Positions 3,001 through 21,127 of a stretch of DNA of 64,000 nucleotides are shown here, in pieces. The DNA is taken from positions 96,001-160,000 of the IMG/VR virus record IMGVR_UViG_3300042453_004886; one strand, given 5' to 3'. The stretch's first letter is position 1, and each line of letters begins with the position of its first letter. Origin of the DNA: a virus. The notes beneath the pieces were generated by a model. The model made no database searches and was not told the DNA's origin. It was given only the letters and a program-made list of their open reading frames with translations. The position numbers and the translations under genes were made by a program.

Positions 3001-6000
3001 TACAGGAGGTTTGGTTACAAAAGAAACCAGAGACCAGTACTTGGGATACTTGGACAAGATAAGAAGGCTTCAAAGCGAAATAGAAAACCTTGCTGCAACA
3101 GATGTTCAAAAATCCGGAGCAAACATTATTGGAGGCTTTGCTGTAATTGCTAACTTTATACCTGGCTTTCACAACATGAAGCTAGGTGAAGATCAAAACA
3201 TAAGGACTTTTGAAACTTCAATCATAGTTGGTGACGAAGTCATGATGAGAGTCATGAACAAAGCAGAAAAAGCTATGAAAGCAGCAGACTCTCTTGTAGA
3301 TAGAAAAGAGTTCAAAGAAAAGCTATCAAAAAAAGCGCAGAAAGCTATGGATAACCATCTTAAAAAAGTAACAAAAGCTGCAGATGTAAAGTTTGAAGCT
3401 GCCTTGCTTGAAAGCACGGATGACGCAAAAGGATACACTTCTAAAAAATCAGGTGTAGGTAAGATCCTTGAAGGATTTACCAATCTTGGTGCTGACTACT
3501 ACAAAAAAATGAGTACTATTTCGTCAACTTCCACATTCTTGAATAGTTTAATAAACATAAGTGAAGCATTTGAAACTATTTACGGAGTTCAGATATCTGG
3601 AAAAACTAATATTGATGACGTTGTAAAAACTTTTACAAGATCAGACGATACTAGTTATTTCCGTACACAGGGCTCTCAAGATTTTTCACAAAACATTCAA
3701 CAGCTAAAAGCTTTAAAGCACGCTCAATCTGTACTTGGAACAGGGACAAGTACATACCTAGACAGTGAGCTACAAGTTCACAAAGAAAACATTCTAAAAG
3801 GTGTAGCTAATACAATCAAAGCACTCCAAAACGAAAAGAAATACGGTCAAGAAGTAGCTACACTAGCAAAATCATTTGAAGCTCTAAGAAAAGACCTTTT
3901 CTGGGTTAATCGAGTAAAAGAACTTAAAAAGATTGGCGAGGGCGGAGAGTTTGAAAGCGTTCAGGAAGCAAGAGATATTATCTTTAATAAGTTATCAAAA
4001 GTAACCGATTTTATAAGATACTTTGAAGATACCCCAAGACTAGGACTGGACAGAGATATAATTCTTCAAAGATTAAGGAAAGACAGAGATAAACTATTAA
4101 AAGAAAAATCAATCGTTGACACAATTATTAAAAAAGAACAAAGAATTATAGACAACGAAGATAAAGTAAAAAATATAATACGTTCCATACAAAAAAAGAG
4201 TCAAGGATCTACTCTTGGTGAAGTTTTAAGTGAAAGAACAAAAGTTACAGAAGAAAACGGAGAAAAAAAGAAGTCTGTATCAACAGAAGTTATTGGATCC
4301 TTTGGTCAAGCAAACGTTGACTTGTTACGGGTACAACTAAGCATATTTGAAAACAAAGCCAGAATGGCCGGGCTGTCTAAGGGTGTAGCAGACGTTCTTC
4401 ACGACACAATAAGAATGAAGAAGTTTGAAATTGCACTCTACGAAAATAGATTAAACCCTGCTGACTTAAGAAAAGGTATAGATACTTTAAAAAATCTAAT
4501 TAACTCAACAAATAATATGAGCGATAAAAAGTATTACGGAAAAATGCTTGATGTTGCTCAGTACAGGTTAGAAGTATCTACAGGCACTAAACGTAGTAAA
4601 AACAACCTTATAAAGAGAAGCGCAGAAGACGTATCTCATGCTCTCTATGCAGCCGGATTTAGCGTTCTTCAAGCTGTGGAAGATGAGTCTTCTCAAAACT
4701 CATTTGGCAGTGAAGACGAAACTGTAAAATATGTAAGAAAAGTTCAAAACCTTCTTGGTGTTTCTAATGTAAAAAATGCACTTCAACTAAGAAGTTACTT
4801 AAGAGGCATAGGGCTAGAATCTGCTTACAGCAGAGCGGGTGCTCCACTTGGATCTGAAGGTGGTGTCAAGTCTGCTCCTATATTCTCAATAAGAGAAGGA
4901 AATAGAATATTCAGACAGCTTGGTACAAGTTTTGAACTTGATGAAAAAGCCAATAGACGTTCTATATTCTTACACATGAGCGGAATGGCTCTTAATCTGG
5001 GTGACTTTGACGGTGACGTTGCAATTCTCACAACTATTGAAAGATACACATTCCTTGAACACTTAAAGCACAAACTCGGTGGAGAAGATAACCTTATTGA
5101 CGTAGAAAGATCTGCAAAAGAACTCATCAAGCAGCTTGAGCAAGCGGGTGCAGATAAAGGCACCATAGATGAATATAGGCTTCTTATAAGCAAACAACGA
5201 GATCCACTTACTAATAACTTGCTAAACCTGAAAGAAGAATATTTAAATCTAAAAACTTCTGTTACGGACTCAGCAAGAAGACTTGTAAGCACTCACATTG
5301 CCGAATACTGGGGTCTTGGAGAGAATGGTCTTTCAAAGCTTGCAGCAAACTATTATGGTAACGCTTACACGGATCCTGATGCTGACAAAGAACTTCTTGA
5401 ACAAAGACTTGCTGTCAAGCTCAATAAGTTCTCGAGTGATATGTACAGCAGCCTTCGCGAAAAAGCATCCAAACTCATAGATAAAAAGATAGCTCAATCA
5501 GACAATTTTGATAAGACTGCAAAAGCTTATGAAGCTCTTCAAGATAACGAAGAATACAGAAAGCATGTAAGAGAGTGGGTTAATAAAGATTCAGGAGCTC
5601 TTGTTGAAGAAAGTTTGGGTGATTTAAAAAACATTTTCAGCACAATAGCCGGTGTTGAGATGTCAGCAGATGAGATTTTAAGATTTGGTATCAAGACTGC
5701 TTTTGCATCTACAAAACTGATTGGTAACTTCTCTAATTTGCAAAATACCCAGCACGCACTATCCACCATGAGCAAGTTTGCAAGTCAAAAATTTTACACT
5801 GACGTTATAAACACATATGCAAATGTAAGTGGTGGGGACATCAGAGCAGTTGCTCCAGAAATTGAGTCCCACTACCAGCAGCTTCAAAAAGAAAAGCAAG
5901 AAACGTTAAATATTATTGTTAGCAGTAATCAGGGTTTCATGCAAAGACTGCAGCAGGCAACTCGTGATGCAATCAAGCCAAAAACTTCAGGTGCTACAAG

Positions 6001-8045: not shown

Positions 8046-8411
8046 GACGTCATCTTGCCCCCAAATTTATTTTGAACCCTGGTTTTTATATACTGCCCTT
8101 AAATATTCTAGGATATTCTAGATATTCTTGTCTATAAAATTTATTGAAATAAAATCTAGATTTTCTGTATGCTGAAAATTTTTTAGCTATAAATTTCAGA
8201 TTACTTTATTTGAAAAATTCATTAGAAAACTTGCGGGATATCAATATAGGAAAATCTATATTCTAAACAGCGAAAGTAGAGCTGGATGGATGGGGTTCTA
8301 TATGGTCCCCCGGACACCCCCCTACACCCTACAAGGGTTTAGGGTATCGGTGTTCGTTCTGGACCATAGAGCCACACCTGTGCGTGTGGCCATGCTGCAT
8401 AGGAGGAAACC

Positions 8412-8915
8412 ATGCAGTTCAAGAAGAGCAAGCCCGTCAAGGGCAAGAAGCCCGTCGTCGCCGTGCCCGCCGCCAAGCCCCGCAAGGGGCTTCTGGCCCG
8501 GGTCGCGGAGGCCCTTGGCTTCGGCGCTCAGGCCCCGGTCCGCGACAGCGAGCTGGCCCAGTCCAGAATCTCCCGGGTTCTCCTCGACAACGCCCTCCGG
8601 GGCGAGCGCGAGTTCTCCACGGAGCTGATCAATCGGAGTCGCAAGACTCTGGAAGATCAGATCCGGGCGGTCCGGGCGGCGGGGGACTTCCGGGCCCCCA
8701 AGGCCGAGGCCCAGAACGTCGCTCCCGCTCCCGTCGTCGCCGCCGCTCCTGTCGCCGCCCGGATCTGGGGTGTTTTCAACACCCTTGACCGGGCCCGGCT
8801 GCGGGCGTGGTCCAAAGCTTGGGTCCAGGCCCAGGCCGAGGCCCAGGCCCAGGCCCAGGCCCAGCCCGTCGCCACCCGGGCGCGGGATTCCCGGGGGCGG
8901 TTCGTGAAGGCGTAA
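8412..8915 (+). CDS. Ala-rich basic early protein, paralog A (C-terminal RDxRGRF motif)
   Basis: AGGAGG Shine-Dalgarno; Lys-rich N-terminus; ends RARDSRGRFVKA; highly similar to 9143-9640. Confidence 0.8.
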   Translation: MQFKKSKPVKGKKPVVAVPAAKPRKGLLARVAEALGFGAQAPVRDSELAQSRISRVLLDNALRGEREFSTELINRSRKTLEDQIRAVRAAGDFRAPKAEAQNVAPAPVVAAAPVAARIWGVFNTLDRARLRAWSKAWVQAQAEAQAQAQAQPVATRARDSRGRFVKA

Positions 8916-9142: not shown

Positions 9143-9640
9143 ATGCAGAAAAAGAAGAAGACCGTCGTCGTCGCTGTGCCCGTCGCCCCCGCCGCCGAGC
9201 CCCGCAAGGGGCTGTTCGCCCGGGTCCTCGAGGCCCTCGGTTTCCGCTCGGCGCCGCTCGTGCGCGACAGCGAGCTCGACCAGCCCAGGCTGTGCCGGAT
9301 GCTCCTTGACAACGCCCTCCGGGGCGAGCGGATGGTGTCGGAGGAGATGCTCAACCGGGGTCGTAAGACCCTGGAGCAGCAGATCCAGGCGGTCAGGGCG
9401 GCTGGGGACTTCCGGGCCCCCGTCGCCACGCCCGTCGCCGTCGCTCCCGTCGCCGTCGCTCCCGCCGCCGCTCCCGCCCGGGTCTGGGGTGTCTTGAACA
9501 CCCTGGATAAGGCACGGCTTCGGGCCTGGTCCCGGGCTTGGTCCGAGGCCCAGGCCGAGGCCCAGCCCGTGGCCGAGCCCGTGGCCGAGCCCGTCGCCAC
9601 CCGGGCCCGGGATGCCCGGGGCCGGTTCGTGAAGGCGTAA
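9143..9640 (+). CDS. Ala-rich basic early protein, paralog B
   Basis: GAGGAG SD; ends RARDARGRFVKA; tandem duplicate of 8412-8915, with shared leader and trailer. Confidence 0.8.
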   Translation: MQKKKKTVVVAVPVAPAAEPRKGLFARVLEALGFRSAPLVRDSELDQPRLCRMLLDNALRGERMVSEEMLNRGRKTLEQQIQAVRAAGDFRAPVATPVAVAPVAVAPAAAPARVWGVLNTLDKARLRAWSRAWSEAQAEAQPVAEPVAEPVATRARDARGRFVKA

Positions 9641-9740: not shown

Positions 9741-9797
9741 CTTTTTAGAGGGGGTCAGCTTTGCTGACCCCCTTTAAAAAGAGCGACTGGTGCTTAC
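9741..9797 (+). promoter_or_regulatory. Hairpin-repeat element copy 2
   Basis: Same hairpin as copy 1 + TTTAAAAAGAGCGACTGGTGCTTAC. Confidence 0.7.
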
Positions 9798-9855
9798 TGG
9801 AAGTAACAGTCTAACCCTTTTGCGGCCATTTTAATCACGAAAGGAGGTGATAAGT

Positions 9856-10011
9856 ATGCGGATGAGCATGGAAGAGAAGTACGTTCGTAGGCGCCAGAAC
9901 CTGGCGCTGTTCGTTCTTCTCGTCCTGTTCCTCGTCGCTGGCGCGATGGAGAACCCCATGGATCGGTTTTCCTTGGGGTCCTCCACGCCCAGCAGCGTGG
10001 AGCAGGACTAA
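9856..10011 (+). CDS. 51-aa small membrane protein (not in ORF track)
   Basis: AAGGAGGTGA SD; MRMSMEEKYVRRRQNLALFVLLVLFLVAGAMENP..., with one hydrophobic helix. Confidence 0.65.
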   Translation: MRMSMEEKYVRRRQNLALFVLLVLFLVAGAMENPMDRFSLGSSTPSSVEQD

Positions 10012-10020
10012 TTGACTTCC

Positions 10021-10052
10021 TACTCGGCGCTAGCGCCGCAATGCGCTGAGTA
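10021..10052 (+). repeat. Branched hairpin element copy A
   Basis: TACTCGGCGCTAGCGCCGCAATGCGCTGAGTA; near-identical at 12820-12851 and 17333-17364. Confidence 0.8.
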
Positions 10053-10056
10053 GGCT

Positions 10057-10117
10057 CTTTTTGAGAGGGTAGTAGCTTCGGCTGCTGCCCTCTTTAAAAA
10101 GAGGGATCGGTGCTTAC
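10057..10117 (+). promoter_or_regulatory. Hairpin-repeat element copy 3
   Basis: GAGAGGGTAGTAGC-TTCG-GCTGCTGCCCTCT + TTAAAAAGAGGGATCGGTGCTTAC. Confidence 0.7.
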
Positions 10118-10215: not shown

Positions 10216-11649
10216 ATGGCAAGCTCAATTCGCGACGCGTTCCTCCCCCTCATTCCGGAGCTGAAGCTCCGGCAGGAGGCGCGGAGGGAAGCCCTCCGCG
10301 CGGACCGCCGGCAGGCCCGGGCAGAGGCCCGAGAGGCCGGCAAGGCCAAGGAGGCGCTCCGGGCGGCTAAGCGGTCCGAGCGCCGCGCCGCCCGCCAGGT
10401 GGCCGCCCATGAGCGCCGCGAGGCCCTCAAGGCGGCCTTTGCAAAGGCCGCCGAGGGCCGCCCCAAGTGGGTCCAGGTCGCCTCCCGGGTGCTACTCATT
10501 CACCCGGACGAGGTCGCTAGACGGCCTCGAAAGGCCGTCCTGGGAGCGCTTCCCACCTGGGCGCTCGTGGACCTGTACTGCCCAGACCCCTTCTGGGAAG
10601 GGGTTATCTGGGAAAACCTCTTCCACGAGGGGGAGGAGCTTATTTCCCGAGAGTTCCTGGAGAAGATCCTCCGGGGCACTTCTTGGAAAAAGCTCCAAGA
10701 GGCTTTTTCCAGATGGTGCCAGCTCGAAAACAGGCCCCCGGAGTGGGAGCCCTACGCGGCGTGGAAGTTCTTTATCTCCGGTGTTTACACGGGGGGCAAG
10801 AAGTTCTTCCCGCTAGCGGGAAGGGTCAGCCACATCCAGGGCATCCTGGAGCACGGCCCAGCGCCGGAAACCCTGTCGGAGGAGGACCTGGATGCCTACG
10901 TCCGGCATCCTGGGGAGTTCAGGCTGAGTGAGCTCCTGGAGAGCGCCGAGGATCGGAAGAACCTCGCGGTTCTCCAAGAGTACCTGGAGCGCCAGCGGGA
11001 GACGTATCTCCCGGAGGAGTTCCGGGAGATCACTGCCAATCAGATCCTCAGCAGGTGGAAGACGCACAAAGACGTGCGCTTCCGCCTGGAAGGGCAGGAG
11101 TGGAGCTCTCCCGACGGGAAGATGGCGGCCCGGTTCTTGCCCAGGACCGACATCAGGGGGCTGCTGGCCGGTGACATCACCGACTGCTGCCAGCACCCTA
11201 TCGGGGCAGGGTCCGAGGCTGCCTGGGACGCGGTCAGGCAGCCCAGCACGGGCAACCTGGCCTTCTTCCGGAAGGGCCGGATTGTGGCATTTACCTGGGT
11301 GTGGGAAGCCCAGGACGGGAGCATGGTGCTTGACTCGATCGAGTACCTGAGCTCCCGCTACATGCCAGAGGTGGCTCAGGCACTTGCTGCTTTTGCAAAG
11401 CAGCTGAGGTGTGAAGGAGTCTCCACCTTTTGGGTTGGGGGCTACTCTGAAGCAGAGCTGGCCTCCCAAGTCCGGGTCCTGGCGGGATTGCTAGGCAGTC
11501 CTCGGTGGGTAAAGGCTTCCCAAGAGGGGGCCTCCCTGAATGGGGAAACTCTCCAGGGCCCCAACCTGGTCCCTTCCGGGGAATTGCCAAAGCCCGTCTT
11601 TTGGATGGGCTACTCGGACCTGCACTACAACATAGTCAGGTTCGATTGA
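10216..11649 (+). CDS. PcfJ-like domain protein (GNAT-like fold)
   Basis: C-terminal GDITDCCQHPIG...AFTWVW...MVLDSIE pattern resembles phage PcfJ-like proteins. The N-terminus is an Ala/Arg/Glu coiled region. Start chosen at the ATG after the AAGGAG SD (ORF track start 10198). Confidence 0.5.
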   Translation: MASSIRDAFLPLIPELKLRQEARREALRADRRQARAEAREAGKAKEALRAAKRSERRAARQVAAHERREALKAAFAKAAEGRPKWVQVASRVLLIHPDEVARRPRKAVLGALPTWALVDLYCPDPFWEGVIWENLFHEGEELISREFLEKILRGTSWKKLQEAFSRWCQLENRPPEWEPYAAWKFFISGVYTGGKKFFPLAGRVSHIQGILEHGPAPETLSEEDLDAYVRHPGEFRLSELLESAEDRKNLAVLQEYLERQRETYLPEEFREITANQILSRWKTHKDVRFRLEGQEWSSPDGKMAARFLPRTDIRGLLAGDITDCCQHPIGAGSEAAWDAVRQPSTGNLAFFRKGRIVAFTWVWEAQDGSMVLDSIEYLSSRYMPEVAQALAAFAKQLRCEGVSTFWVGGYSEAELASQVRVLAGLLGSPRWVKASQEGASLNGETLQGPNLVPSGELPKPVFWMGYSDLHYNIVRFD

Positions 11650-12364: not shown

Positions 12365-12550
12365 ATGAACATGAATGCCACCCGGAGCGATGTGTTCCGG
12401 GCTGTCGTGCAGGAGAACAAAATCCTGCGCGAGCGTCTTGAGGAATGTCAGAGGTTGATCAATCTCTTTTCGGACCTCGAGACGCGCCTTGCTGAAGAAA
12501 GGGCAAGGCAAATTGAGTTTGAACGGGAGCTCTTCTGGAGCTGCCGTTAA
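12365..12550 (+). CDS. Small coiled-coil hypothetical protein
   Basis: GGAAGG SD before ATG 12365, in frame with ORF 12284-12550. Confidence 0.6.
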   Translation: MNMNATRSDVFRAVVQENKILRERLEECQRLINLFSDLETRLAEERARQIEFERELFWSCR

Positions 12551-12557
12551 AACTCAC

Positions 12558-12612
12558 CTTTTTGAGAGGGGGCAGGGATGCCCCCTCTTTAAAAAGAGGG
12601 ACCGGTGCGTAC
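12558..12612 (+). promoter_or_regulatory. Hairpin-repeat element copy 6
   Basis: GAGGGGGCA-GGGA-TGCCCCCTC + TTTAAAAAGAGGGACCGGTGCGTAC. Confidence 0.7.
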
Positions 12613-12672
12613 TGGATGCATTGGTTTACCCCTTTGTTACGCGGCCATCTCTAAAAGAAAGGAGGTGATTAC

Positions 12673-12801
12673 ATGATGGAGTCGGATTTCCTCCGGGCCG
12701 AAGCGGCCCTCGAGGAGGCGATCCTCCGGGCTGAAGAAGCTGCCGAAACGGCGGCAGCCCGGGAGGAGTGGGCCGCTGCTTTCGCGGCGGTCTGGGGTTA
12801 G
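12673..12801 (+). CDS. 42-aa acidic helical peptide, copy 1 (not in ORF track)
   Basis: AAGGAGGTGA SD; MMESDFLRAEAALEEAILRAEEAAETAAAREEWAAAFAAVWG; paralog at 17191. Confidence 0.75.
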   Translation: MMESDFLRAEAALEEAILRAEEAAETAAAREEWAAAFAAVWG

Positions 12802-12819
12802 TTTTTTCGTTTCTTTTCC

Positions 12820-12851
12820 TACTCGGCGCTAGCGCCGCAATGCGATGAGTA
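12820..12851 (+). repeat. Branched hairpin element copy B
   Basis: TACTCGGCGCTAGCGCCGCAATGCGATGAGTA. Confidence 0.8.
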
Positions 12852-12855
12852 GGCT

Positions 12856-12916
12856 CTTTTTGAGAGGGTAGTAGCTTTAGCTGCTGCCCTCTTTAAAAAG
12901 AGGGACCGGTGCGTAC
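12856..12916 (+). promoter_or_regulatory. Hairpin-repeat element copy 7
   Basis: Same type as copy 3 + GAGGGACCGGTGCGTAC. Confidence 0.7.
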
Positions 12917-13011
12917 TAGCACTAAAGGTTTCCTCCCAGAAACAAAGGAAGATGAGCTCACTCGGTGAGATCTTCCTTGCTGTCAGAGACAGCAATGTTG
13001 CGTACATAAAA

Positions 13012-13053
13012 GCGGGGTCTAACCCCTCTTTAAAAAGAGGAATTGGTGCGTAC
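13012..13053 (+). promoter_or_regulatory. Hairpin-repeat element copy 8 (short hairpin)
   Basis: GGGG-TCTAA-CCCCTCTTTAAAAAGAGGAATTGGTGCGTAC, directly upstream of RNAP-like gene 1. Confidence 0.65.
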
Positions 13054-13171
13054 ACGCATTAAATGTCTTCCTTTTTTCCCCGGATTTTTTATCGCGTAAT
13101 CCGGTGATCGCCATATACTTGGCGCCCTTTGCTCGGGGAGAGAGCGTTTTCAGCGCATGAGGAGGAAACCA

Positions 13172-16100
13172 ATGCGTATGAACAAATTGGTGAATCAAAA
13201 GCACCAAGCGCTGGCGAAGCTGGCGGTGGAGAGATTCAAGAAAGCACAGGAAGCTCCTGAGGAGAAACCTGAGCCGACTATGGATCTCATCGCTCGGGCG
13301 AACGAGAAGGCTGTTGAATACAGCCGGCTTCGTAAGCTTGCCCTTGAAGTTCTCTCTCATGAGAGCTCTGAAGAGGGCTGTGTCGAATTCGGGATCAAAC
13401 CTGAAGACGACATGGGCGTAATTCGCCGCAAAGTGGTGAACCGTTTCAAAGCGGGTAACCACTCGGTGGTCCGGGGCGAGCTCAAGACGCTGTTCCCTCG
13501 TCACGAGGAGGACATCTACGAGCCCGCCGAGGTCACCAAGCAGGATGTTGCCGACATGGCACTCCTGTTCGGCGCGGAGTGGCCCACCGACGAAGCCTTC
13601 GGCTTGTTCGGTGTTACCTTTGACTGGGACAATGCCGGAAGGCTTGTTGTCAACGGTAAGAAGGCTCTGAGGAACGTCATCGCCGTTTTCGGTGGTGGTA
13701 TGCCTCACGAGCTCTTTCAATATCAGACTGCAGCTCTGGTATTGTTGGCCGCCCAAGGTGCTGCAGCCCAGGAGCGTGAGAGGTTTGCATCAAACGCAAG
13801 CCCTTACCAGGTCCAGAAAGCGCTGACGAAAGCCTTCCAGAAGGTGATCAACAGCGGGCCTGTGAACAAGGGTAGCGAACAACCGGCCTACGGGTTTGTT
13901 GATGCAACCTGTGCGCTCCGACTCAAGGAGATCGTTCGACCGATCGAAGTCCTGCTGGTAGAAGATAGCATCGTCTACCTGGAGCAGATTGATCCCATTC
14001 TTGGCAACAAGATGGTGAAAGAACTGCACCCGGACTACGGTGTGGATATCGAATCGGGTAACTACCGGCCTGCCGGTAAGATGCTCGACGAGAACCACAT
14101 CGCGGTAAGGTCGAGCGATGGGGCCAAAAGTGCCAAGCGCACCCGTATGGCCTCAGGTGAGCAACAGGAACCGGTGAATCCTGTGCTCTCTCGTGTTTCC
14201 TACAGAGGAACTCGAGCAACCGGCTCCCTGATCACCGCGTTCCTTGCGCCGTGTGCAGACCCGTTCTTGGCGGGTGGTCCTGGCGGTAGCCTTGATTTGT
14301 CGGGTGAAACCGGCGTCAAGACCAGCTACTGGGACGACGCGCTGCACAGCGGCACGAGCTTCGATATCCGTTCCGCCGAGGATAGAGAAGCCTTCCTGAA
14401 CACCCTCCCCAGCGATGGGGATGTTCTCGGCGAGACCCTTAGCGTGTTTGGCGCCCCACCTGTCAAGGTGCCTTCAGACGCTAGGGGCGTGGTCACTAAG
14501 GTGACCGCGGCCCCCGATGGAGCCTACCGCAATATGCGGTGGCAGGTGCATAGTCGTTTCAAGGAAACTTCTGTGTTCACCAAGCTCCGCGGATCAATCA
14601 AGACGATGGTCTCTGCAGGCCTAGTTGCGAAGATCCGACTCGGGGAAGGGTCCATCACCCACTTCGACATCCGCAATAGCGGACTTGCCCTGTCGGGGTG
14701 GGAAGGAGAGGATTTGTTCCTCTCAGGAGACGCATTCAAGGGAACCGGGAAAGGCAACAGCCAATTCCGGGTGGAAGTCGCCGTTGAAACGATATGGCAT
14801 TTCCTTCCTTTGGAAGCGGACAGTCTCCTATCCTCTCTGCTCCCGGAGGCGCTCTACAAGGGCGGAATCGTGGAGTATGACGAGGCGTTCGATCTCGACG
14901 GGGCTTACGAGCCTCTGATGAGGGAATTCGAGCGTCGTTTTGCCAAAGTCGCTGACCTTGGTAAGACAGTCGAACTGCCTGAAGTCTGGGACAAGTGGTT
15001 GCTTGAGCATGCCACGAAGGTCGGGCTGAAGGTGGAAGACCTCGTCTGGAGCCCCTTCCAAAAGGAGGGAGTCACTGGCAAGCAGGTGGCTTTCAACATT
15101 GGTAAGGGTATCACGGGGCTCCCAGAGTACCGCGTATTTGTACTTTACGACGATGGCTGCAAGGCTGTTGTGAGGACCACGACTGCGTTTAAAACCGCGA
15201 TGTTGGTCCGTGTAGAGTACGGAAGCGTCAGGAAGGCAGCCAGCAAGGCCCAACTTATGCTCGAAGTCGCTTACGGCGCTAAGGCAATGGGTCTTGACGA
15301 GCTCGCTGAGTTCCTCGAGTACGAGGGGCGTTCCAAAGCGCGTGCGGTGCTCAAGCTCATCCGTTCGGTTGGTCCCAAGGCAGCAATTGCTGAGGGAAGT
15401 CGAGTAATCGATGCCGCCGAAGCAACGGATGAGGACCTGCTTGAGATCGAAACCCTGCTCGAGAGTGATCTCGAAGCATGGCCGGAAGATCTTGTTATCG
15501 AATGCAAGTTCGAGGACAAGAACGGAAAGCTGTGGAGAGTTGTCTTGGCTCACCACTTGGTTTCGGTCATCTCAAAGGAGAACCCCCAGAGAAAGGCAAT
15601 CTCTGGCATTCTCGATGCGATCCTTAACAAAGATCGTACAAGGTTCGAGAATAACATCCGGGTCCTTGAAGGTGGGCTGTCTAACATGGTTTCTTTGGCC
15701 AATAAGAAACTGTGGAAGAAGGTTCACGCAGGTCCAAATGCTGCACACGGTAAGCGGGTCATCGTACTCGCCTCTCACGTGGGCTGCCATGAGGAACTGC
15801 TCGTCAATCCGTTCGGCAAAAATGCTAGACATCTAGCCAAGCAGAACGGTTGCGAGATCAAGGAACTGGATGGGCGGTGGGTAGTCGTCCAGCGAGCTCC
15901 ACAAAGCCTGCCGATTTTGCTGAGAATCGTGTTAACCACGGCTATCGGTAAGAACGTGTTCGGCATGACGGACCTTGCTGCCTCGATCGACAACGGCGAT
16001 CACGATGGAGACACTATCCTCGTGACGGTCATCCCTGACCAAATCGCCGAAGTGACCCTGCAGAAGTACAACGCTCGCAGAAAGTCGCTGTCGATTCACG

Positions 16101-16975
16101 AGGGTACGCACAAGGCGGATCCGTATCACTGGATCGAGCAAAACACGTTTGTGGATGGAAAACACAACGTCTGGGCTCGTCCTTCCGTGGTTACGGTTGA
16201 AAACTTGCGCAAGTACGACGAGGCGGGCATCCGGGCATATACACTTGAAATGCCTTCGGATGCCAACAGGGCACACCTCGCCCTTGCCATCGCTTCGATG
16301 CAGCTTCCCACAGGCTGGGGGGAGTTCAGCATCGAGGAGGCCAACGGCCTGATGTTCAGCGTCTACGAGCCGGAGCTTGGTGGTTTTAACCCCAAGTTCG
16401 CTGCTGCTCATGCCGCAATTGCCAATCTTGGCAATGAACGTCTCAAGGAGTTCCTCCAAGCTACGGATAAGCTCGACCTTCGGGAAGACTTCGCCAAGGC
16501 TTGGCTTCGGTCCGCAGATGCCAAAAGCTGGTGTCAGAAGACCGTGAGTTACGCAAAGTTTAACAGCAATGGAAAGCTTTCCGTATGGAACCTCACCCAG
16601 GCCACGGTCCCTCAGGAGCAGAGGCTCGCAGCCGTACCCAGGTTAGTTGCTTTTGCAATGAAACTCCTGTCAGTTGGGAACGTCAACAACCAGTTGATGC
16701 TCAATCTGGACAAGGTCGTTGTCGAGAGCATGGTCAAGGAGACCAAGGGCGAAAACCGGCGTTACTACCCGGTTCTAGTCAAGGGTAAGCCAGAAGTGGT
16801 CGAGCTGAAAAGCGTGATCAAGAAACTGGCAGCAAAGGGAGTCCCGGGCGCTCAGCGCTTGGAGATCTGGATGGACCACATCCTCCCTGAGTTCTCCAAG
16901 TACCACCCCAAGGAGTACCATGCCGCAATGGCCTTCAACGGGGACTACGATTGTTCCGATTCGGAGGAAGAATAG
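13172..16975 (+). CDS. Single-chain two-barrel RNA-polymerase-like protein, paralog 1
   Basis: VVVQRAP...[14 protein letters not shown] (nt 15998-16012) matches beta-prime NRAP...[29 protein letters not shown] resembles [28 protein letters not shown] supplies a DPBB-B-type lysine pair. GAGGAGG SD before ATG 13172. Confidence 0.72.
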   Translation: [1267 protein letters not shown]

Positions 16976-17070
16976 CAAACTGATCGGGAACTTGGCGGCT
17001 TTGTCTTAAGAACGCACAGAAAGTGCAAAAGCAAAGCTGCTAAGTTACCTGATCAAGACAACTAAATAAC

Positions 17071-17132
17071 CTTTTTAACAGAGGGGGCTGGTTCATTCCA
17101 GTACCCCTCTTTAAAAAGAGGGACCGGTGCGT
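17071..17132 (+). promoter_or_regulatory. Hairpin-repeat element copy 9
   Basis: GAGGGG(G)CTGG-TTCATT-CCAG(TA)CCCCTC + TTTAAAAAGAGGGACCGGTGCGT. Confidence 0.7.
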
Positions 17133-17190
17133 CGGTGCGTCCAAGGTGCAACCCTTTTGCGGCCACTTAATCACGAAAGGAGGTGATTAC

Positions 17191-17310
17191 ATGATGGAAG
17201 ACTTCCTCGCGGAGGCCATCCTCCGGGCTGAAGAAGCTGCCGAAACGGCAGCAGCCCGGGAGGAGTGGGCAGCTGCTTTTGAAGCCCTGGACCAGTGGGT
17301 CTGGGGCTAG
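17191..17310 (+). CDS. 39-aa acidic helical peptide, copy 2 (not in ORF track)
   Basis: AAGGAGGTGA SD; MMEDFLAEAILRAEEAAETAAAREEWAAAFEALDQWVWG. Confidence 0.75.
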   Translation: MMEDFLAEAILRAEEAAETAAAREEWAAAFEALDQWVWG

Positions 17311-17332
17311 TTTCTTGTTTGTTTTCCTTTCC

Positions 17333-17364
17333 TGCTCGGCGCTAGCGCCGCAATGCGTTGAGTA
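17333..17364 (+). repeat. Branched hairpin element copy C
   Basis: TGCTCGGCGCTAGCGCCGCAATGCGTTGAGTA. Confidence 0.8.
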
Positions 17365-17368
17365 GGCT

Positions 17369-17427
17369 CTTTTTGAGAGGGTAGTAGCTTCGGCTGCTGC
17401 CCTCTTTAAAAAGAGGGACCGGTGCGT
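17369..17427 (+). promoter_or_regulatory. Hairpin-repeat element copy 10
   Basis: Same type as copies 3 and 7, directly upstream of RNAP-like gene 2. Confidence 0.7.
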
Positions 17428-17548
17428 CGGTGCGTCCAAGGTGCAACCCTTTTTGCAGGTTTTTCTCGTGGAACCTGATGATCGCCATACAGCTGGCGCC
17501 TTTTGGTCGGGGAGTGACCGCATGCTAGTCGAAAGAAAAGGTAGGACT

Positions 17549-20500
17549 ATGATGTCCGAATACCTGAAGCTTCGCGAATCGGTAGCAAGTGCTCTGTTGG
17601 GTGACACCAACGAGCACGGGCTGCCGCCCGTCGAGGCCGGCTTCGAAGCCTTCAGCAGACAAACTGCTAAGGCGCTGAAATCCTTGGGAATGGCATTCCA
17701 GGGTGCAACCCTTGTGGAAGAAGAGTTTAACAGACTCTTCGGAAACTTGGGCGATCACGGGTGGGAGCTCACCCCCGTGGACCAGATGGACCTTGTTGTC
17801 CTCTCGGTTATGCTGGGAGCGCAATTCCAGGGATGGGAGACAATTTCCTTTGATAAGGAGATTCTCTCGTTCGATCAGGCTGGCAACCTGGTCGTCGGTG
17901 GCCGCAAGGCTATCGGCCCCGTGCTGCTCGTGCAGAGCGTCAGGGATCTTGGGAATCCCGTCGTCGTAAATACGGCGGTGCTTTCCAAGTACCAGGCCGC
18001 GGCCTACGTCATGCTTCTCGGAGCACGTCGTGGCCTGAGTTCCGCCTTGAAGGCGTGCGACCGGTTCCTCATCGATCCCGAACAGGGGTTCATCGATGCG
18101 GATCGGAAAAGACTCCTTGACGGGAGTCTCCGCGTCGTCGAGGTAGAGCTCCTTGGCAATCTGCTGGAGCCCGTCGAAAAGACCGACCGTCTGCTCGTGA
18201 ACTCGGTGGTTCGGGAACTGCTTCCCAACTACCGCGTTCGCGCCTCAAAGGACAGCTACGCCCCATTCGGAAAGCTGGCCCCGGTACCTGGTTTCCTCGA
18301 CGTTCCAACCGTCGACGAGGCCAAAGGCGTGAAGCGGGCGGATGCCGCAGATGTCACTCAGTGCAGACCGGTTAACCCCGAGCTCTGCGCTCTGTCGTAT
18401 CAAGGCACGCGGGGCACAGGCGTTCTCTTGGACGTCTTGCTCGCCCCGTGCGGTCTCGCGACACTCACCGGGTTCGGAGACGGAACCGCTGCAGTGCTCT
18501 CCCGAGAATTCGGGGACAAGGCAGCCTTCCATGATCCGTTCGTGGTGAGGGCCACCAGTTTCGCGGTCAAGAGCCAGGAGGACTGCGAAAAGTTCATGGC
18601 GACTATTCCCAAGGTAGGGGAAGAACTCGTCGGCAGCAAGTTGAGCGTGCACGGTGCGCCAACGAAACTGTTGCCCCTTGGCAAGAAGCTCGTCACCGGG
18701 GTCTCCCAAGCCACGGAAGACCCCACGTATGGCAACATACGCTGGGAAGTGAGGGGCGAGGCAATCGACCGTAGCGGAGATGGTAAGCTCCGCGGGCTTC
18801 TCAAAGCCATGACGGTGTTCCCAGCCGTCAAGATCCACCACGGGCATGGCTTCCCGTGGAAGGAACTTACCAGGAACGAACTCGTCATCGCCCTTCCGGG
18901 CAATGTTAGGACGAAGTTTGACCTCCTAGCCGGGATGGCGTGCTGGAAAGGCAGCGGAAAAGGCTCGGGTAAAAACCGGGTCGAGACCGCCGTCCAGACC
19001 TTCAAGCGGCACCTTACCCATGATGAGTTCGAAACTCACATGGGGGAGGTACTCCCCGCTGAGGGCTTCGACGCCGATGGCACCCCACGCTACGACGAGA
19101 CCGTAGACGTGGGTGGAGGATACTCACAGCTGGTCCAGTCTTTCGAGGAGCACTATGCTGTTCCTCTTAGGATTGGCCGTCTCATCGCCAAGGACCTGTG
19201 GTCCAGGCTTCTGGATGCTTACCTCAGACAACTGGGTAAGCGGAAAGCAGACCTGGAGTGGGAGCCCACCCCGATTGGTGGCCAGGCAGCCAGCTTGGAA
19301 ATCATGAAGGGAATCACGGGCAAACCGGAGGTGCTTACGTTCGTCGTCCTTGACGATGGGCGGACAGCGCTTGTGCAGCAGACAACTGCATTCACCACAG
19401 CCATGGTGCTGAAGGTGGAGCACACGTCTGTTGCCCGGAGCGTGTCGATCGCGCACATGATGCTGGACGCTGCCATAGCGTTCAAGGCACTTGGGCACGA
19501 GAAGACCGCTCGTTACCTTGAAGAACAGTCCAGGACCCCTGCAAAGGGTGTCGAGCGGCTGTTTGACTTGGTAAACGGGCACATCCCGGTCAGCCACAGG
19601 ACCGTCGGTCTCCACCCCGGCAAAAGCCGGCTGCTCCCCGAGGGAACCGCCATGCTCAAGGCCATTATCGAGAGCGATCTCGAGACCTGGCCTGCTGATC
19701 TCTGCCTCAGTGCAGGGCTCAACGAGCAGGAGTTCTGCGTCGACAGGACCGTTCTGGCAACCATGCACGCGGAATCGCCGCAGCGGGGTGCCGTGAAGGG
19801 GCTGATCGAAGCAGCTCTTGGCGGGGATCTCACCCGGTTCCAGAACAATTTCCGGACGCTTCGCGCCGCTTTGCACAAGATGCTCAGCGCCGCGAACAAG
19901 GGTTTCTTCAAGAAGCTCATGTCTGGACCGCGAGGCTCCCATGCCAAGCGTGTCCCGATCACCTCGTCCGGTGCTGCTCATGATGAACTTCAGATCCACC
20001 CAAAAGGGCAGGTCTGGAGGAATTTGGAAACCATCTTGGGAGAGAAGATGGTGGACGGGCAGTATGTCCTGCTTCTCCGGGCGCCGATGAAGACCCCGAG
20101 CTTGCTCAGGGTCAAGTCGTCGTTCTCCGTAGGGGTGAACAAGTTCGCCGTCTCCGAGAAAACCGCGTCGTCGTCACGAGGTGATTTCGATGGAGAAGGC
20201 GTCGTAGTCGTCCCGCTGTCCCAAGAGGCCGTCGAGGAGCTTCTGAGCGCTAACTACAGCGCTTGGGAGCTCAGCTTGAAAGCTCACTCGATCAAGACGG
20301 GAGGCGAATTCCACTGGGAAGACGCCAACCTGCTGATCGATGGAAAGCACAACGTTTGGGGTAAAGCCAAGCGTGTGTCGATCCAGAGCTCGATCGCGCT
20401 CGATGAGGGAACCATCCGGGCCTACCGCATGGAAATGCCCGGCGACGCCAACAAGGCCACCATGGCCCTCATGTTGGCTGCAATGGGCAAGTACCAGCTG

Positions 20501-21127
20501 AACAACGTCCTTGGGCTTCTCTTCGAAGTCTGGGAGGCGGAGCTTGGCGGGTACGATCCGAAGTTTGCTGATGCCCACAAGGCAATGCAGATCGAGGATC
20601 CCATCGAGCGCGAGGAGGAGTTCCTCAAGGCATGCGCCAAATTGAACTTCACGGAGGAGTTCGGGCGTGCTTGGCTTTCCATCTCCGCGGCGAAAACCTC
20701 AACGATGAAAGCCCTTCAGAAAGGCTATCTCATTGGGGAGCACATGACGTTCCGGCACGTCATCAGCCAGAGCACTCCTGCCGACGAACGATCGATGTCC
20801 GCATGGATGGCGATCGCGTTCGCGATGAAGCTGCTTTCGAGCGGTGAAATCAACAACGAACTCATGCTCAACCTCGATATTGCCCGAGTTGAGAATTGGG
20901 TGGTTGTCGGTAAGGACCGGAAAGGCAAAGACATCCAGCGCCCCACCGGAGAAAGCTACGACCTTGCACAAGGTATCAGCTTCCTCTGGAAGCAGGGGCA
21001 CCCTGCGGCTACTCGGCTGCAGCACTGGATGATGGCGGTTCTTCCGAGGCTGCGCGAGTTGAGCAAGGAGAAATCCTACAGGGCTTTCAGCCCGGACATG
21101 CTCAACAGCTCATCTGAGGAAGACTAG
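17549..21127 (+). CDS. Single-chain two-barrel RNA-polymerase-like protein, paralog 2 (DFDGE variant)
   Basis: YVLLLRAP...SSRGDFDGEGVVVVP (nt 20183-20197); GKLRGLLK; colinear similarity to 13172-16975 along its length. Start chosen at the ATG after AAAGGTAGG (ORF track start 17441). Confidence 0.7.
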   Translation: MMSEYLKLRESVASALLGDTNEHGLPPVEAGFEAFSRQTAKALKSLGMAFQGATLVEEEFNRLFGNLGDHGWELTPVDQMDLVVLSVMLGAQFQGWETISFDKEILSFDQAGNLVVGGRKAIGPVLLVQSVRDLGNPVVVNTAVLSKYQAAAYVMLLGARRGLSSALKACDRFLIDPEQGFIDADRKRLLDGSLRVVEVELLGNLLEPVEKTDRLLVNSVVRELLPNYRVRASKDSYAPFGKLAPVPGFLDVPTVDEAKGVKRADAADVTQCRPVNPELCALSYQGTRGTGVLLDVLLAPCGLATLTGFGDGTAAVLSREFGDKAAFHDPFVVRATSFAVKSQEDCEKFMATIPKVGEELVGSKLSVHGAPTKLLPLGKKLVTGVSQATEDPTYGNIRWEVRGEAIDRSGDGKLRGLLKAMTVFPAVKIHHGHGFPWKELTRNELVIALPGNVRTKFDLLAGMACWKGSGKGSGKNRVETAVQTFKRHLTHDEFETHMGEVLPAEGFDADGTPRYDETVDVGGGYSQLVQSFEEHYAVPLRIGRLIAKDLWSRLLDAYLRQLGKRKADLEWEPTPIGGQAASLEIMKGITGKPEVLTFVVLDDGRTALVQQTTAFTTAMVLKVEHTSVARSVSIAHMMLDAAIAFKALGHEKTARYLEEQSRTPAKGVERLFDLVNGHIPVSHRTVGLHPGKSRLLPEGTAMLKAIIESDLETWPADLCLSAGLNEQEFCVDRTVLATMHAESPQRGAVKGLIEAALGGDLTRFQNNFRTLRAALHKMLSAANKGFFKKLMSGPRGSHAKRVPITSSGAAHDELQIHPKGQVWRNLETILGEKMVDGQYVLLLRAPMKTPSLLRVKSSFSVGVNKFAVSEKTASSSRGDFDGEGVVVVPLSQEAVEELLSANYSAWELSLKAHSIKTGGEFHWEDANLLIDGKHNVWGKAKRVSIQSSIALDEGTIRAYRMEMPGDANKATMALMLAAMGKYQLNNVLGLLFEVWEAELGGYDPKFADAHKAMQIEDPIEREEEFLKACAKLNFTEEFGRAWLSISAAKTSTMKALQKGYLIGEHMTFRHVISQSTPADERSMSAWMAIAFAMKLLSSGEINNELMLNLDIARVENWVVVGKDRKGKDIQRPTGESYDLAQGISFLWKQGHPAATRLQHWMMAVLPRLRELSKEKSYRAFSPDMLNSSSEED

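Follow-up and report, generated by a model that had tools for sequence, protein, structure and literature searches.

Introduction

In phage T7, the class I small early genes (0.4, 0.5, 0.6 and 1.1) are interspersed with the RNA polymerase (RNAP) gene and are separated from one another by hairpins that act as RNase III sites. Phage micro-proteins of fewer than 50 residues are mostly missed by annotation, and several of them control host or viral machinery as potent switches. Here, we analyse two such small open reading frames (ORFs), pepA and pepB, together with the repeated module that carries them, within a window of 64,000 nt from a viral genome (bases 96,001–160,000 of record IMGVR_UViG_3300042453_004886 in IMG/VR, record length 194,626 bp; coordinates below are those of the window). 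Each ORF stands before one of two large paralogous genes that may encode RNAP-like proteins. We propose that pepA and pepB are real, translated paralogues that encode an acidic, single-helix protein of 39–42 residues, expressed from a three-copy module and acting in trans on one target (probability of roughly 0.58).

The locus is similar to that of T7 in that ORFs of ~40–60 codons lie beside a phage polymerase gene, in the region expressed first, with conserved stem-loops bounding the cistrons; the T7 products are host-takeover proteins or small proteins of unknown role. Unlike T7, the repeats here have a conserved single-stranded tail and are promoter-like, the peptide gene is duplicated and apparently homogenised, its Shine–Dalgarno (SD) sequence is extreme and the polymerase-like genes are not of the T7 type. 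There is no sequence relationship between the two loci.

Acidic proteins that mimic DNA (Ocr, ArdA, phi29 p56 and Ugi) are folded or dimeric, with carboxylates arrayed like a phosphate backbone. The peptides have the same strong negative charge, but each is one Ala-rich predicted helix of 40 residues that shows no sign of oligomerisation and is not homologous to the mimics. Small phage proteins also bind RNAP, as T7 Gp2 does. Docking of such proteins on host or viral machinery is well known (PMC11323111, PMC3351154, PMC9239242), and those that bind RNAP include P23-45 gp39 (PMC3351154) and TraR-like proteins (PMC9239242, PMC11323111). The RNAP-binding proteins are likewise small, early and sometimes acidic, and dock on the polymerase surface. 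They differ in being larger, folded domains (~60–140 aa) that target the host enzyme, and the peptides match none of them by sequence or profile.

The nearest described layout is that of Thermus phage P23-45. There, a dedicated motif directs the virion RNAP gp96 to the pre-early genes, one of which encodes gp64, a two-barrel RNAP that is not part of the virion, and the pre-early terminators have a conserved 26-nt motif (PMC10770324). In both phages, a giant virion protein with polymerase motifs adjoins a block of early genes, further polymerase-like proteins being among their products, and early units start at a conserved motif and end at a conserved element. In contrast, the large proteins studied here have no detectable homology to PDB chains, and there are two paralogues instead of one. 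A term search of PMC10770324 returned no mention of a peptide partner or cofactor of gp64.

The gene evidence is unusually clean for sequence alone: the SD is unique and full-length, the core changes are only synonymous and the indels are in frame. The peptides would form a new micro-protein family, without homologues in the collections searched, inside an unusual repeated expression module; this module would be a reusable, recombining slot that serves small early proteins, in a lineage of phages that has almost no relatives.

Coding signatures of pepA and pepB

We located pepA at 12673–12801 (42 aa) and pepB at 17191–17310 (39 aa), with a common core, exactly where an earlier note on this DNA had placed them. 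Both lie in an island of high G+C content (55–61% at 8.3–28 kb, 20 kb) within a genome that is otherwise mostly ~40% G+C. The island holds every cassette feature, all on the plus strand, as well as all 11 copies of the repeat element described below and all ORFan early-type genes. The note had called the peptide genes unannotated, which is only partly so: both products, of 42 and 39 aa, appear in a public gene call for another contig (34 kb) of this phage.

Their ribosome binding sites stand apart from those of all other genes in the island. The 10-mer AAGGAGGTGA has exactly three copies in the 194,626-bp genome, each located 6–8 nt before a small ORF of 51, 42 or 39 aa, the 51-aa ORF being the third member of the set (pepC). 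We counted contiguous complementarity to the 3′ tail of the 16S rRNA, which we take to have its conserved sequence, and found 13–14 nt for these three ORFs, compared to 5–8 nt for the other island genes. The extended SD sequences are located at 9839–9851 for pepC (13 nt of complementarity), at 12657–12669 for pepA (14 nt when one base upstream is counted) and at 17175–17187 for pepB. The claim that the peptide genes have the strongest SD in the window was thus correct and, if anything, understated.

Codon usage singles out the same reading frames. We calculated a codon score as the codon-usage log-odds per codon, trained on the large island genes. The acidic pair scores 0.62 and 0.58 in frame and pepC scores 0.44, compared to 0.37 ± 0.16 for windows of true genes, while the five remaining frames of each small ORF score at most 0.1 (at most 0.09 for pepC). 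Other ORFs in the cassettes (48, 78 and 147 aa on the minus strand and 36 aa on the plus strand) were rejected as candidates; their codon scores are weak (≤0.20, with the rest near zero or negative) and they span repeat elements.

A comparison of the two copies reveals the pattern of change of a protein-coding gene. The products have an identical 23-residue core and are separated by two indels, one of 7 residues close to the N-terminus and one of 4 residues close to the C-terminus; the underlying indels, 21 and 12 nt long, are both in frame. The 23 codons of the core differ at four nucleotides, each of them a third position and synonymous. Two extra synonymous differences lie outside of the core and four non-synonymous ones at the indel edges (totals of 6 and 4, respectively). 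The ORFs are 77% identical over their whole length and 94% identical in the core, against only 67% in the leader directly upstream. Taken together, the SD, the codon usage, the synonymous-only core changes and the in-frame indels support the gene-hood of the peptides, and make it very probable that both pepA and pepB are translated.

We weighed these data against the explanation that the ORFs are chance open frames in duplicated regulatory DNA and are not translated. Long open frames come easily in the GC-rich island, where 27% of out-of-frame ATGs open at least 39 codons, although the probability that three arbitrary island ATGs all do so is ~0.02. The non-coding DNA flanking the ORFs is also as conserved as the ORFs themselves, and no homologue was found in the protein collections searched. 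But chance frames do not account for a unique SD of 13–14 nt at ideal spacing in three out of three cassettes, for gene-like codon usage in the proposed frame only, for in-frame indels and synonymous changes, or for the rise in identity from leader (67%) to ORF core (94%). Consequently, we consider chance frames to be highly improbable.

The codons also record when the copies parted. At identical residues, pepA and pepB use the same codon in 78% of cases, compared to 39% for the large paralogues (Fisher P = 8e-5), and the large proteins are only 33% identical. These measurements indicate that the peptide genes and their 3′ modules have a far more recent common ancestor than the genes downstream, which points to gene conversion between the repeats or to recent copying.

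Predicted structure and homologues of the peptides

The peptides have net charges of −7 (pepA) and −8 (pepB) and are 31–36% alanine. Using a two-sequence alignment, AlphaFold2 predicts one uninterrupted helix across residues 2–41 (mean pLDDT of 93.9). Bulky hydrophobic and aromatic residues are found at both helix ends, with an Ala/Glu-rich middle, and the hydrophobic moment of the whole helix is no higher than in shuffled sequences.

In searches for homologues of pepA and pepB, pepB itself was the only match, both among 1.84 billion representatives (HMMER) and among 5.8 billion clusters (profile search). The ESM Atlas contained no usable match to the acidic peptide, and Pfam and PHROGs yielded nothing significant, including no match to the small RNAP-binding phage proteins. 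When the entire phage genome was searched with the peptide by tblastn, only the two known copies were found.

A three-copy expression module

Cassettes A and B, named after their peptide genes, have the same order of parts: a repeat element, a leader, the ORF, a hairpin and U-run, a second repeat element and a large gene. The repeat element, a CTTTAAAAAG core with a GGTGC tail, has 11 copies between 9.0 and 21.3 kb, all on the plus strand, where 0.1 would be expected by chance. Copies are located upstream of the peptide ORFs at 12584 (element at 12565–12611) and 17106 (element at 17073–17133), and upstream of the large genes at 12888 and 13025 in cassette A and at 17401 in cassette B. Each peptide gene therefore has its own copy of what had been called a promoter; we regard the promoter role as putative.

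After each peptide stop codon come a U-rich spacer, a 12-bp hairpin with a 12-nt loop, a U-run and then a copy of the element. In the minimum-energy fold, the long hairpin of that element stacks on or abuts the 12-bp stem. The structure that the earlier note described as a branched hairpin is accordingly a single stem and loop beside the next element's hairpin. The genome has only three copies of the post-ORF hairpin sequence, each of them following a small ORF. The resulting 3′ modules are located at 12818–12913 in cassette A (hairpin 12818–12853, U-run 12854–12861, element), at 17331–17426 in cassette B (hairpin 17331–17366, U-run, element) and at 10019–10114 in a third cassette, C (12-bp hairpin, U-run, element with a ‘TAGTAGC’ inner hairpin).

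Cassette C (9749–10114) has the same leader, SD and 3′ part as A and B, with an unrelated ORF, and stands ahead of a 477-aa gene (10216–11649). Its first repeat element, one of the 11 copies, is at 9749–9796. The ORF, pepC (9856–10011), encodes 51 aa, of which the N-terminus is basic, a single span is hydrophobic and the tail is polar, in agreement with the claim that a different membrane peptide fills the same slot. Pairwise identity between cassettes is 100% for the SD, 95–96% in all three pairs for the 96-nt hairpin and element, 67–76% for the leader (with B closest to C) and 61–79% for the first element, while the A or B ORF is ~51% identical to that of C, the level of unrelated sequences. 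The three modules directly precede the three largest genes of the island.

The final codons of pepA (12770–12793) and pepB (17283–17308) fold into hairpins of 10–11 bp at the same place with different sequences, and the 12-nt insertion supplies the 5′ arm of the pepB hairpin. A U-rich tract follows each of them, which suggests a possible first terminator overlapping the stop codon.

The conserved flanks raise the alternative that the module acts in cis, such that transcribing or translating a short, highly structured leader unit directly ahead of the special element copy is what matters and the peptide is incidental; the unit could serve as an insulator, protect the RNA or help the hairpin of the next element to extrude. 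Swappable ORF content (an acidic helix or a membrane peptide) inside flanks conserved at 95–100% is consistent with this explanation, as are the position of all three units directly before the three largest genes, the strong folding of the ORF RNAs (z of −9.2 for pepC) and the different hairpins that the pepA and pepB 3′ ends form at the same place. However, the core changes are synonymous only, with a 3-nt periodicity not expected from RNA structure, all three ORFs have good codon usage and pepC has the orderly layout of a membrane protein. Moreover, the distances between stop codon and hairpin (7, 16 and 20 nt in the three cassettes) give no fixed attenuator geometry. A purely cis-acting module is, in our assessment, distinctly improbable. 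A leader peptide or attenuator was considered separately and rejected, because a full element lies between the hairpin and the large gene, the stop-to-hairpin spacing is variable and the ORFs have no runs of regulatory codons.

The recurrence of one cassette ahead of both large genes holds for the order of its parts, but cassette A contains an extra unit of ~137 nt that is absent from B. In this unit (12916–13050), ~100 nt of stem-loops with no credible ORF are followed by a truncated element, the third copy in the cassette. The ~100-nt stretch between the second and third elements of cassette A (12916–13012) has a three-stem fold (z of −3.1) and may represent a small RNA or what is left of another module.

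We also searched for the module elsewhere. Rfam covariance models reached at best 20–30 bits on the cassette RNAs, compared to gathering thresholds of 44–79, and a pattern scan of IMG/VR for the repeat element found no match. Two pattern matches in JGI metagenomes were judged to be chance, as they lie within unrelated coding DNA and have no hairpin.

Proposed mechanism and target of the peptides

We propose that an early polymerase starts at the upstream element, a putative promoter, and that the resulting short transcript captures ribosomes with top priority to produce the peptide. Transcription would mostly end at the hairpin and U-run, the presumed terminator, while the large gene would rely on an element of its own. 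Gene conversion between modules, or recent copying, would keep the two peptide genes alike, in effect providing a double dose of one protein. The peptide may then act in trans on one common target, which it would contact through the hydrophobic and aromatic anchors at both ends of the acidic helix. Candidates for this target are the phage polymerases and, alternatively, a host protein.

As the earlier note observed, each RNAP-like gene is preceded by a near-identical acidic peptide gene. We take this position to reflect the habit of the module, which precedes the three largest genes of the island, and the most economical reading of the pair is a double dose of one early micro-protein that would act in trans on one target. 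The positional pairing is not evidence of partnership because the slot is generic, the peptides and large proteins do not co-diverge, a hairpin with U-run and an element lie between the two genes, and the peptide's ribosome binding site is far stronger. With a hairpin, a U-run and a further element after it, each peptide ORF looks like a separate transcription unit.

Alternatively, the peptides could be dedicated to the two polymerase-like proteins, as their accessory subunits, gates or inhibitors; an acidic helix could, for instance, sit in the nucleic-acid channel in the manner of sigma region 1.1 or a DNA mimic. The acidic copies precede exactly the two paralogues, they concentrate a charge of −7 or −8 on one long predicted helix and they differ mainly at both ends, where the 7- and 4-residue indels could tune specificity. 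The one relative of the large proteins, described below, has a basic, Ala-rich N-terminal extension that could pair with an acidic helix, although this is a lead only and the similarity between peptide and extension is not significant (E = 1.4). Several data disagree with a dedicated partnership. One copy of the module holds an unrelated membrane peptide and stands ahead of a gene that is not a polymerase. The peptides are almost the same, whereas the proteins that they are supposed to partner are 33% identical, and the peptide genes arose much more recently than the large paralogues. The peptide genes also form separate units whose SD is far stronger than that of the large genes, which does not suggest a 1:1 stoichiometry. 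We consider dedicated partners unlikely.

These counter-points may still leave room for one shared peptide acting on both polymerases. Under this explanation, the acidic helix would be a shared small subunit or gate of an unprecedented, diverged pair of single-chain two-barrel polymerases, docking by its aromatic ends and filling a basic nucleic-acid channel with its carboxylates, with one copy of its gene per polymerase gene, homogenised by gene conversion. One homogenised copy before each polymerase gene would make peptide and enzyme appear together. We judge such a shared subunit to be quite unlikely.

Our preferred reading, of a translated trans-acting protein whose position follows the module, also has observations that weigh against it. 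It may not be accidental that the two acidic copies stand before just these two polymerase-like paralogues. The selection test rests on few substitutions because there are only two copies in one genome, and one of the four synonymous changes in the core also keeps an RNA pair. The RNA is folded over the acidic ORFs, with z of −3.2 and −4.5. However, coding DNA is unusually structured throughout the island, where 130-nt windows within the big genes have a mean folding z of −2.2 (standard deviation of 1.2, minimum of −4.65). The values for the acidic ORFs are within the tail of these ordinary coding windows, indicating that the folding is a property of the island and no argument against coding.

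The choice of target determines what the peptide would mean. Binding to the polymerase-like proteins would make it the first small partner of a single-chain two-barrel phage RNAP, and a target in the host would make it a new takeover peptide, the host being of the cyanobacterial type. The combination of extreme SD and hairpin module may, in addition, serve as a natural high-expression cassette.

The large polymerase-like genes and their relative

Large paralogue 1 is located at 13172–16975 (1267 aa from this ATG) and large paralogue 2 at 17549–21127 (1192 aa), both on the plus strand, as is the 477-aa gene that follows cassette C. The metal-binding DxDGD loop of a β′-like barrel appears as DHDGD in paralogue 1 and as DADGD in the Logan relative, while paralogue 2 has DFDGE in its place. 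The changed third carboxylate suggests that one of the pair may be catalytically altered. A conserved Gly/Lys-rich motif is found ~400 residues upstream of the DxDGD motif.

These motifs, together with weak Atlas feature matches to LEF-9 (0.87) and to a cluster bearing Rpb1_2 (0.84), both of which are below the 0.9 level for a lead, speak for the label RNAP-like that the large genes had been given. The label receives no support from other searches: the large genes have no Pfam or PHROG match, no PDB match either by sequence or by a three-sequence profile, and no match by hhalign to the window's giant virion protein. An AlphaFold2 model of paralogue 2, built on a three-sequence alignment, had a mean pLDDT of 37 and was unusable for a fold search. 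On balance, an RNAP-like identity is plausible from the motifs. The 477-aa gene has no family match, and its earlier designation as PcfJ-like has no support from Pfam or PHROGs even at E ≤ 10, including from the Pfam PcfJ model itself.

The leaders of the two large genes (13090–13171 and 17464–17548) contain a conserved segment, 71% identical, with a small hairpin around GATCGCCATA; this 10-mer occurs only at those two leader sites in the genome.

The sole homologue of the large proteins outside of this phage is a 1,382-aa product on Logan contig L001 (SRR24310136, 4,333 bp), which is 45% identical to paralogue 1. No relatives of the large genes were found in IMG/VR by protein or alignment search, in GTDB genomes, in INPHARED by tblastn or by megablast of the region. 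The Logan contig has 27 nt upstream of its large gene before it ends. Past the stop codon of that gene, positions 4195–4333 of the contig contain the same repeat element with its tail, a cassette-like leader and an ordinary SD, and the contig ends four codons into the next ORF. The presence of the element on this contig indicates that it is conserved across a protein divergence of ~45–47%.

At its N-terminus, the product of this contig (L001:28–270, P0004 residues 1–80) has a strongly basic, Ala-rich extension of ~+10 net charge, as counted by eye, which both paralogues lack. The idea that the peptide corresponds to this extension of the relative's large protein, in the manner of a Rosetta stone, was rejected: the BLASTP E-value is 1.4 and low-complexity, Ala-rich matches appear on both strands.

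Other features of the island

Tandem paralogues at 8412–8915 (167 aa) and 9143–9640 (165 aa) encode Pro/Ala-rich repeats and have a leader hairpin in common. The 167-aa gene has no upstream repeat element; it is preceded instead by an AT-rich stretch (8060–8290) with sigma-70-like hexamers. Immediately before cassette A, the RNA of a 61-aa, coiled-coil-like ORF at 12365–12550 has a folding z of −7.5.

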